From Escherichia coli (GTDB taxonomy: Bacteria; Pseudomonadota; Gammaproteobacteria; Enterobacterales; Enterobacteriaceae), in NCBI RefSeq assembly GCF_024223415.1, contig NZ_CP100500.1: a DNA stretch of 64,000 nt. One strand, written 5' to 3'. This document shows positions 12,424-12,806 of this stretch, one piece after another. The notes under the pieces were generated by a model. The model saw only the letters and a list, made by a program, of their open reading frames with translations. It was not told the origin of the DNA and ran no database searches. The translations under genes and the position numbers were made by a program. How positions within the stretch are numbered: the stretch's first letter is position 1; each line of letters begins with the position of its first letter.

Positions 12424-12472
12424 TGCCCCAAATTGCCCCACAACAGACATTTTTGCCCCATGCATGCCCCAA
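12424..12472. repeat. Four copies of TGCCCCA within about 50 bp just inside the prophage left end
   Basis: ATGCCCCA / TTGCCCCA / TTGCCCCA / ATGCCCCA direct repeats; candidate integrase arm-type or regulator sites. Confidence 0.4.
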
Positions 12473-12492
12473 AAAATCACTTTCCCTCACCC

Positions 12493-12542
12493 TTGACACT
12501 GTTTATCCATACAGTTAAAAATAATACTGTATACAAACACAG
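12493..12542 (+). promoter_or_regulatory. Sigma70-like promoter (TTGACA -35) overlapped by two LexA boxes, upstream of dinI-like gene
   Basis: CTGT-N8-ACAG at 12499-12514 and 12527-12542; perfect TTGACA at 12493-12498. Confidence 0.65.
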
Positions 12543-12557
12543 TGTAGAGGGATTTTT

Positions 12558-12806
12558 ATGCGTATTGAAATCTGTATCGCTAAAGAAAAATTCAGCAAAA
12601 TGCCAAAAGGCTCTGTACCTGCTCTACAACAGGAAATGTCTCGCCGTATCAGAAAACAATACGACGATGTGGAGGTTATAGTAAAATCCGCCAGTAATGA
12701 CGGACTGACCATTTTAAGAGCCGTAGATAAAGAAAACGCTCAGAAGTTCATACAGGAAACGCTGCAGGAAGTCTGGGAAACTGCTGATGACTGGTTTTTT
12801 CACTAA
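12558..12806 (+). CDS. DinI-family DNA damage-inducible protein (prophage-encoded)
   Basis: 82 aa; resembles remembered DinI family (MRIE..IAK, C-terminal ETxQExWExADDWF); SOS boxes upstream. Confidence 0.75.

Follow-up and report, generated by a model that had tools for sequence, protein, structure and literature searches.

A dinI-like gene with predicted LexA control adjoins a candidate integrase-arm region at the yecE end of an Escherichia coli prophage

Results and discussion

Analysis of a 64,000-nucleotide stretch of the Escherichia coli chromosome (contig NZ_CP100500.1; the whole stretch is called the window below) shows a prophage end inserted in yecE. Two adjacent and functionally separate prophage features very probably make up this end: a P27-type attachment-site arm (12285 to ~12491) and an SOS-wired dinI cassette (12493 to ~12912). 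The sequence anatomy, family membership, conservation and independent occurrence of the modules were observed directly, and from these we predict LexA binding, SOS inducibility, integrase binding and an interaction with RecA. The features are listed in Table 1.

Table 1. Features at the yecE end of the prophage (positions in the window)
Feature	Position	Strand	Basis
Host yecE 5' fragment, 32 codons, truncated by prophage insertion	12200..12295	+	Identical to K-12 yecE up to GTG 12293-12295
Att core/overlap of yecE-integrating phages, TTAACTGCGTG	12285..12295	+	Same 11 bp as attR/attL in the P27 record, AJ298298
Phage-derived arm of the right attachment site (P-arm equivalent, int-distal side)	12296..12491	+	Conserved in P27 attR, TUM10008, phi80 fossil and PPompW fossil (alignment)
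IHF-consensus match AATCAAAGCGTTG between core and arm sites (putative function)	12354..12366	+	Perfect WATCAANNNNTTR match
Palindrome CATATGAA-N11-TTCATATG inside the arm; candidate accessory-protein site	12378..12404	.	
Five candidate arm-type integrase sites, consensus WTGYCCCAW	12413..12471	+	Starts 12413 (degenerate TGTCCCA) and 12424, 12434, 12454, 12465 (exact TGCCCCA)
Sigma-70 promoter of the dinI-like gene	12493..12522	+	-35 TTGACA 12493-12498, 18-bp spacer, -10 AAAAAT 12517-12522; 10/12 matches
SOS box 1 CACTGTTTATCCATACAGTT, fills the -35/-10 spacer	12497..12516	.	PWM 21.5 bits, rank 2; approximate heterology index 5.6
SOS box 2 TACTGTATACAAACACAGTG, beginning 3 nt past the -10 and covering the presumed start of transcription	12525..12544	.	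PWM 21.7 bits, rank 1; approximate heterology index 3.4
dinI-like gene, 82 aa, RBS GAGGG 12547-12551	12558..12806	+	Pfam PF06183, phrog_189, PDB 1GHH
Probable intrinsic terminator of dinI, 9-bp stem AGGCGUGUU/AACACGCCU then UUUCUGAUAUUU	12874..12912	+	RNA fold z = -2.55

Host junction and prophage setting

The host part of the window carries aspS (9555-11327, - strand) and yecD (11604-12203, + strand), followed by the first 32 codons of yecE. Immediately after 12295 the sequence diverges from K-12 yecE (ATACGG here vs GAGGGC in K-12), and TTAACTGCGTG constitutes the last 11 bases that both have in common. P27 is a yecE-integrating Stx2e phage. Since the last 11 bases shared with K-12 equal the attL and attR of P27, the prophage start is placed at 12296. 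The same 96-nt partial yecE coding sequence is annotated in RefSeq for strain TUM1886.

The late genes are all located on the - strand and read toward the yecE junction. They comprise a gene of the DUF4376 tail-fibre-assembly type, genes for an HTH protein resembling sigma-70 region 4 and for an adhesin of the YadA/Eib kind, and a run of other large ORFs that reaches about 22.7 kb. The yecE junction marks the prophage end away from int. Of the 5,426 complete E. coli genomes searched, only two contain the complete stretch 12150-13200. An Rfam search of 12000-13800 gave no relevant RNA family.

The attachment-site arm and its TGCCCCA repeats

The first-pass annotation described four TGCCCCA repeats upstream of the dinI promoter. 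All four are present, and a fifth, degenerate copy precedes them. Window-wide, the 11 copies of TGCCCCA equal the number expected by chance (11.4), but the clustering is above chance: five same-strand copies of TGYCCCA fall within 59 bp, against 15 same-strand copies in the whole 64 kb. The array consists of one single site and a pair of 20-nt dyads at a repeat distance of 41 bp; within each dyad the two sites are spaced by 11 bp. Two other elements lie between the core and the repeats. The IHF-like site is one of two perfect WATCAANNNNTTR matches in 64 kb, a consensus that carries little information; it is partly conserved, with one mismatch in P27 and one in phi80. The palindrome at 12378-12404 reads CATACG...CGTATG in P27 and in the PPompW fossil, a change that preserves the palindrome.

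The first-pass annotation also suggested that the repeats may be integrase arm sites, and comparison with other phages lends support to this suggestion. In P27, PPyecE_EH1910 and TUM1886 the WTGYCCCAW motif recurs as a pair with 11-bp spacing, 55-75 bp from the core and within the 3' end of int. This pair is the reverse complement in the orientation of the records and is located in the last int codons (VPMMSH). It represents the only motif copies in 2.5 kb of the P27 and PPyecE_EH1910 loci, and in the 14-kb locus of TUM1886, the left prophage end of which is 99% identical to this window, the only other copy is 2.4 kb away. Once put in one orientation, all seven sites of both arms face the same way around the core. 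The yecE integrases of these three phages are 75% identical to each other, and all three start with a Pfam PF12167 Arm-DNA-bind_2 domain at the N-terminus (E about 1e-23 to 5e-24).

Given the motif pair on the int side in three yecE phages, together with integrases that carry an arm-DNA-binding domain, the TGCCCCA repeats are most likely arm-type integrase sites. The simplest reading of these comparisons is that WTGYCCCAW would be the arm-type site of P27-type integrases. The motif tracks the type of integrase and not the cargo gene: it is present with P27-type attachment sites and absent with those at dusA or ompW. At mlrA, a different core adjoins the same arm, there with three copies of TGYCCCAT. 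In the proposed mechanism the cognate tyrosine integrase would contact the arm sites with its N-terminal arm-binding domain and bridge them to the core during integration and excision. Our search of the literature on the arm motif, the yecE integrase and arm-type sites found no published description of a TGCCCCA arm motif; for the motif itself it gave phiC31 attP papers, none of them relevant.

The window itself holds another integrase. The Int at 57167-58297 is of the lambda type (Pfam Arm-DNA-bind_1), adjoins ompW and is unrelated to the P27-type Int. A different triple repeat, TTTGCAGA, comes after this Int at its junction and serves as an internal control; in strain 135 the ompW prophage has TTTGCAGA again at its opposite end. 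A tblastn search gave no P27-type integrase in the window and no significant similarity between the window Int and the P27 type. Because only this unrelated lambda-type Int is present, the TGCCCCA sites are without a cognate integrase in the window, and they may no longer function in this element.

Arm and cassette occur apart

For a survey of conservation we used 59 IMG/VR loci with proteins 63-88% identical, which yield 29 distinct upstream sequences (related sequences, not independent samples). TGYCCCA repeats are found in 11 of these upstream sequences and are missing in 16. Similarity to many prophages at other integration sites (about 99%) begins only at 12489-12493, just upstream of the -35.

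A single regulatory unit, in which a factor that regulates the dinI promoter would bind the TGCCCCA repeats as operators or activator sites, was implied by the title of the first-pass annotation. In its favour, the last repeat ends only 21 bp upstream of the -35, and the adjacency of repeats and promoter recurs in 11/29 distinct homologous upstream regions. However, the same promoter, boxes and gene are found at 99% identity without any repeat in two prophages: in the GF4 dusA prophage the identical promoter, both boxes and dinI come directly after the integrase gene, and in the ompW prophage of strain 135 the same cassette comes after a terminator. Conversely, the attR of P27 has the arm and the repeats without promoter or dinI (seven-locus alignment). 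The motif is moreover found inside the int 3' end on the other attachment-site arm, which suits an integrase site and not a regulator of dinI. We consider regulation of dinI through the repeats very unlikely. Because each module occurs without the other in other phages, the repeats and the cassette are best taken as independent modules with a mosaic boundary at about 12489-12493, and the notion that the repeats belong to the dinI control region is not supported.

The dinI promoter and its LexA boxes

The TTGACA promoter is overlapped by two LexA boxes of the form CTGT-N8-ACAG (12499-12514 and 12527-12542), just as the first-pass annotation had it. Its -10 hexamer, AAAAAT, is weak. The two boxes are 2 of only 3 matches to this pattern in the window, with 0.73 expected; the third, at 25946, is unrelated and arises by chance. 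A LexA position weight matrix (PWM) which, like the heterology index, was trained on a set of E. coli operator sequences from the literature (PWM training range 12.7-27.4) ranks the two boxes first and second over all window positions, with 21.7 and 21.5 bits. In third place it ranks the genuine SOS box of ruvA at 6831-6850, an internal control, and the maxima in shuffled sequences average 12.8 bits. The heterology indices of both boxes, which are approximate, fall in the range of proven operators.

The PWM scan revealed no other credible LexA box in the prophage. A third LexA-like site beside the terminator (CTGTATACATACTCAG, 12860-12875) was rejected as chance, since its 10 bits are below the mean shuffled maximum. 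Likewise, a leftward promoter-like match (12548-12521) is weak and at chance level.

In 27 of the 29 distinct, mutually related upstream sequences both boxes are found in unchanged positions, about 41 and 13 nt before the ATG; one of the others keeps one box and one has none. At the position of box 1 a LexA box is kept in 28/29. The CTG...CAG half-sites are retained and the inner bases vary. The promoter is conserved in the homologous upstream regions as well, and the phi80 paralogue keeps box 1.

It might be argued that the LexA-box matches are chance palindromes, with the gene being constitutive or under phage control. Nothing specific speaks for this view beyond the unrelated match at 25946, which shows that the pattern can arise by chance. 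Against it, the two boxes, spaced 28 bp apart, lie exactly over the promoter and take the top two PWM scores in 64 kb, and the box position is conserved across diverged homologues, including phi80 with its 24%-identical paralogue. Chance palindromes are to be regarded as extremely improbable. By position and conservation, we predict the dinI cassette to be a LexA-repressed, SOS-inducible unit. In the undamaged cell, LexA dimers on box 1 in the spacer and on box 2 at the transcription start would block RNA polymerase. After DNA damage, activated RecA would lead to self-cleavage of LexA and the dinI promoter would fire.

The DinI-like protein and the end of the transcript

The 82-aa protein matches the Pfam DinI family over the entire profile (PF06183, positions 1-63 of 63, E 1.8e-19, 70.3 bits vs a cut-off of 24.2), phrog_189 'RecA filament binding protein DinI' (E 2.5e-27) and, in an end-to-end alignment, the E. 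coli DinI structure in PDB 1GHH (E 3.7e-13). Its identity to E. coli DinI is 48%, and the RefSeq product name is 'DinI-like family protein'. Together with the promoter and box data, these matches bear out the claim of a DinI-family gene behind a LexA-box promoter at the left end of the prophage. It is a single-domain protein without N-terminal extension. The C-terminal LQExWExADDWF helix, which is acidic and amphipathic, is conserved and aligns with LQETWESADDWF of 1GHH.

The orientation of the gene had been given as outward, toward the host junction. This is wrong: dinI, a + strand gene, heads from the yecE junction (12295/12296) into the prophage interior, convergent with the - strand tail-fibre and Eib genes. 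The probable terminator hairpin begins 68 nt after the stop codon; its loop is 9 nt long, its U tract is interrupted and it was not called by the terminator scan. Between 12806 and 13190 there is no + strand ORF of at least 30 aa. Since no + strand ORF follows and a terminator hairpin is present, the dinI cassette is considered monocistronic.

Once made, the DinI-like protein would bind RecA filaments through its acidic C-terminal helix. The filament would be stabilised and its coprotease activity restrained, UmuD cleavage especially, as is the case for E. coli DinI. Transcription would end at the hairpin, about 70 nt past the stop codon.

Possible role of the DinI-like protein in prophage induction

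E. coli DinI reportedly binds RecA filaments and inhibits their coprotease activity at high levels, in work attributed to Yasuda in 1998, Voloshin in 2001 and Lusetti in 2004, of which the latter two are cited in PMC3121763. Together with the conserved C-terminal helix of the prophage protein, this activity would fit a timing device that damps or delays the RecA-stimulated cleavage of the phage's own repressor, and the first-pass annotation likewise proposed that the prophage DinI could tune RecA-dependent repressor cleavage. However, the immunity region is Rac-like (YdaS, YdaT, RecE), and the resident repressor candidate, of 139 aa, matches nothing in Pfam and so has no S24 autopeptidase domain. 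Besides the two boxes of dinI, the prophage has no other credible LexA box. Moreover, non-polar dinI deletions in Gifsy-1 and Gifsy-3 caused no significant change in the level or rate of induction (PMC3121763). The tuning claim finds no support in these observations, and we consider a timing device unlikely.

A second way to link the cassette with induction is to regard it as the trigger, either because it heads an antirepressor operon under LexA control, as in Gifsy dinI-gfoA, or because it encodes a Tum-like fusion of antirepressor and DinI. Such architectures are described for Gifsy and for 186/PSP3 (PMC3121763). In addition, the PHROG profile has 151 positions of which the protein aligns with 71-148 only, which would fit a profile with longer, fused members. 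Yet the protein here has 82 aa and no N-terminal extension, only 68 nt separate its stop codon from the hairpin and no + strand ORF of at least 30 aa occurs before 13190. As no antirepressor partner accompanies the DinI domain, either as a fusion or in the same transcription unit, an antirepressor module is highly improbable.

The dinI promoter is found within about 25 bp of the outermost arm sites in many yecE- and mlrA-integrating phages. One conceivable meaning is that LexA occupancy affects the assembly of the recombination complex and so couples excision or integration to the SOS state; alternatively, the SOS-induced DinI of a prophage that is not itself RecA-cleavable might dampen the RecA-dependent induction of competing co-resident prophages (e.g. 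Stx phages) and thus protect the host. Both readings are weakened because arm sites and cassette also occur apart and because the Gifsy dinI deletions left induction unchanged, and the chance that either holds is small. Our best guess, by analogy, is that the DinI-like protein would modulate host RecA filaments in the way of chromosomal DinI, being expressed whenever the host SOS response fires and independent of phage repression.

Mismatched prophage ends

The right flank of the prophage reads int-ompW-yciC-yciB-yciA-tonB, which is the reverse of the K-12 orientation. A direct-repeat search for a matching attL gave no second copy of the left-junction sequence in the rest of the window. TUM1886 has this left end on a yecE prophage of normal structure, one that closes with xis-int-yecE. 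Because the ends are mismatched (yecE left, ompW right) and no P27-type int is present in the window, we conclude that one of two things lies within the window: an assembly join, or the junction of an inversion, between 1.31 and 1.95 Mb in K-12 coordinates, that arose when a yecE prophage recombined with an ompW prophage over a shared dinI-Eib module. With mismatched ends the prophage probably cannot excise by site-specific recombination.

Significance

The feature is a textbook-type accessory gene with predicted LexA control which adjoins, but is not functionally part of, an attachment-site arm, and this kind is already known. Its significance beyond annotation is small: a RefSeq label exists, LexA control of the Gifsy homologues has been published and the phi80 site has been predicted. 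As by-products, the analysis provides a candidate arm-type consensus (WTGYCCCAW) and an arm layout for P27-type integrases at yecE and mlrA, both of which are hot spots for Shiga-toxin phage insertion. It also presents the dinI cassette as a portable unit with putative LexA wiring, recombining at a well-defined breakpoint immediately before the -35, and it brings to light the mismatched ends of this prophage.

Comparison with known systems

The arm resembles lambda attP (P1, P2, P'1-P'3 and IHF sites) in that a short non-core motif is found on both arms at a spacing of about one helical turn. The arms are likewise asymmetric (about 175 bp and about 80 bp), and an IHF-consensus match of putative function is located between the core and the arm sites. 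Lambda Int, like the yecE integrases, has an N-terminal arm-binding domain. Unlike lambda, the P27-type system uses Arm-DNA-bind_2 instead of Arm-DNA-bind_1, its predicted sites have the motif WTGYCCCAW and those on the int side lie in the last int codons. The attR of P27 in yecE has the same 11-bp core and a homologous arm, but lacks dinI.

In PPompW prophages the yecE fragment and arm persist in decayed form. A yecE-derived attB inside these prophages is described in the attachment-site passages of Nakamura et al. 2021 (PMC8112680); the same passages describe the att core and the yecE-derived flank and do not mention arm repeats or dinI. For CFT073, a 'c0943 dinI-like' gene has been reported to vary with SOS genes (PMC2817434). 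We set this gene aside as evidence for the cassette: the DinI-family gene near the expected position is in a P2/186-like prophage behind a small ORF, a different context, and c-numbers are no longer in RefSeq.

Chromosomal E. coli dinI (1GHH) encodes a protein of the same fold family with 48% identity and an acidic C-terminal helix, and it is LexA-repressed. It differs in being a core-genome gene, whereas the gene described here is phage cargo; RecA binding of the phage protein is a prediction. Salmonella dinI is likewise preceded by two boxes, at distances of 19 and 42 nt from its start codon (PMC8072944).

The dinI homologues of Gifsy-1, -2 and -3 are LexA-controlled: DinI accumulates after mitomycin C, and replacement of the LexA box supports this control (PMC3121763, Lemire, Figueroa-Bossi and Bossi 2011). 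A survey of the Salmonella SOS regulon gives 4.6- to 23-fold induction by nalidixic acid for these homologues and places a box 19 bp from their start codon (PMC8072944). As in the present prophage, a DinI-family gene directly follows a promoter with a LexA box near the ATG, and as in strain 135 a terminator is found upstream of the dinI cassette. The Gifsy gene, however, has one box and heads an operon into an antirepressor and irsA in the early region, whereas the gene described here is monocistronic, has two boxes and is found at the far prophage end beside the attachment site.

The layout recurs in phi80, even though this phage has one box and its DinL/MsgA-like protein is only 24% identical. 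The segment in question is an internal relic there, with the active attP and int about 1.2 kb away. Nonetheless, a fossil yecE 5' fragment is followed by an arm with three TGCCCCA and one TGTCCCA, and then by TTGACA, a LexA box and a DinI-family gene, in the same way as described here. In the phi80 record (GenBank JX871397), a predicted LexA site is annotated ahead of dinL, in the corresponding position. The whole layout is already present in the annotation of this reference phage.

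Prophage ends of two integrase types

The window holds a single prophage of approximately 46 kb (12296 to ~58340), and its two flanks do not belong together in K-12. The left flank (9555-12295) corresponds to yecD-yecE' at ~1.95 Mb of K-12 and is in K-12 orientation, and the right flank (58343-63985) corresponds to int-ompW-yciCBA-tonB at ~1.31 Mb, reversed relative to K-12. Either a yecE prophage and an ompW prophage seem to have recombined, leaving an inversion junction that spans the terminus, or the assembly is wrong here. Because the integrase types differ between the two att ends, excision of the prophage by the site-specific route should be impossible.

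At the ompW side a word repeated three times follows the lambda-type integrase gene (see the table). In strain 135 the homologous prophage has this word, TTTGCAGA, at its far end too, close to the ompW' junction (~1281 of the strain 135 locus analysed). The repeats are probably arm-type sites of the lambda-type integrase itself.

Features of the window
Feature	Position	Strand	Location and remarks
Known ruvAB SOS box TGCTGGATAGATATCCAGCG	6831-6850		upstream of ruvA (6170-6781, -); rank 3 in LexA scan
Exact 10-bp direct repeat AAAAATCACT	12309-12318 and 12472-12481		brackets att arm
Palindrome CATATGAA-N11-TTCATATG	12378-12404		within att arm
LexA-like site CTGTATACATACTCAG (CTG-N10-CAG)	12860-12875		abuts dinI terminator hairpin
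AT-rich spacer, 290 bp	12900-13190		between dinI terminator and sigma-like HTH gene
Sigma-70-region-4-like HTH gene	13190-13645	-	after YadA-anchor autotransporter gene
YadA-anchor trimeric autotransporter, 393 aa	13706-14887	-	
Ash/Rha-domain protein gene	53188-54036		within early region 50861-56876
Lambda-type integrase gene	57167-58297		
TTTGCAGA, three copies	starts 58306, 58319, 58330 (span 58306-58337)		between lambda-type integrase stop codon and ompW

The yecE-side arm and its relatives

The phage-side arm next to yecE contains a palindrome whose symmetry is kept elsewhere: phage P27 and the fossil arm of the ompW prophages carry CATACG...CGTATG at the same place, a paired change. This suggests a candidate site for a dimeric accessory protein, possibly an excisionase or other factor. 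One copy of the direct repeat adjoins the core and the other follows the last arm site; the pair may be due to chance.

Relics of the arm are found inside other phages. Both phi80 (JX871397; 2411-3007 of the locus analysed) and the ompW prophages (PPompW_132418; 720-970 of the locus analysed) contain, in their interior, what is left of a right junction of the yecE::phage type, made up of a yecE 5' fragment and the arm. The TGCCCCA repeats of this relic are intact in phi80, whereas those of the ompW prophages have decayed. After the phi80 relic come a LexA box and the DinI-family paralogue dinL, which is only 24% identical to the dinI-like gene of the window. Furthermore, IMG/VR contig 2541047728_000006 (1700-2003 of the locus analysed) joins the arm sequence of the yecE prophage PPyecE_EH1910 (TGACGCAACATTTTTAAAAATCGACG and three TGYCCCAT) to the 5' end of mlrA (yehV), not to yecE. 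A single type of arm is used at two chromosomal targets, yecE and mlrA/yehV.

Other LexA-like sites and the early region

Outside the dinI promoter, the scan recovered the ruvAB SOS box, which is already known; as a control this has little weight, since the box is a member of the training set. The site beside the dinI terminator has a PWM score of 10 bits, under the shuffled background, and its likeness to LexA operators is therefore probably chance. No LexA box was found near the early region, which is Rac-like: it has YdaS-like and YdaT-like genes and an 817-aa fusion of RecE-type exonuclease VIII with a 3'-5' exonuclease domain that is Rv2179c-like.

Spacer and autotransporter locus

Inward of dinI, the spacer contains small hydrophobic ORFs on the minus strand (for example 12983-13108, containing MKITKAAFIFALSVWSVAVICLLLFVLVVLG) without RefSeq annotation, which could encode a small membrane peptide or be noise. 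The P-EibC record AF151674 gives a 93% match to the att arm adjoining the autotransporter locus, and the gene pair at 13190-14887 resembles the prophage-borne Eib immunoglobulin-binding loci.
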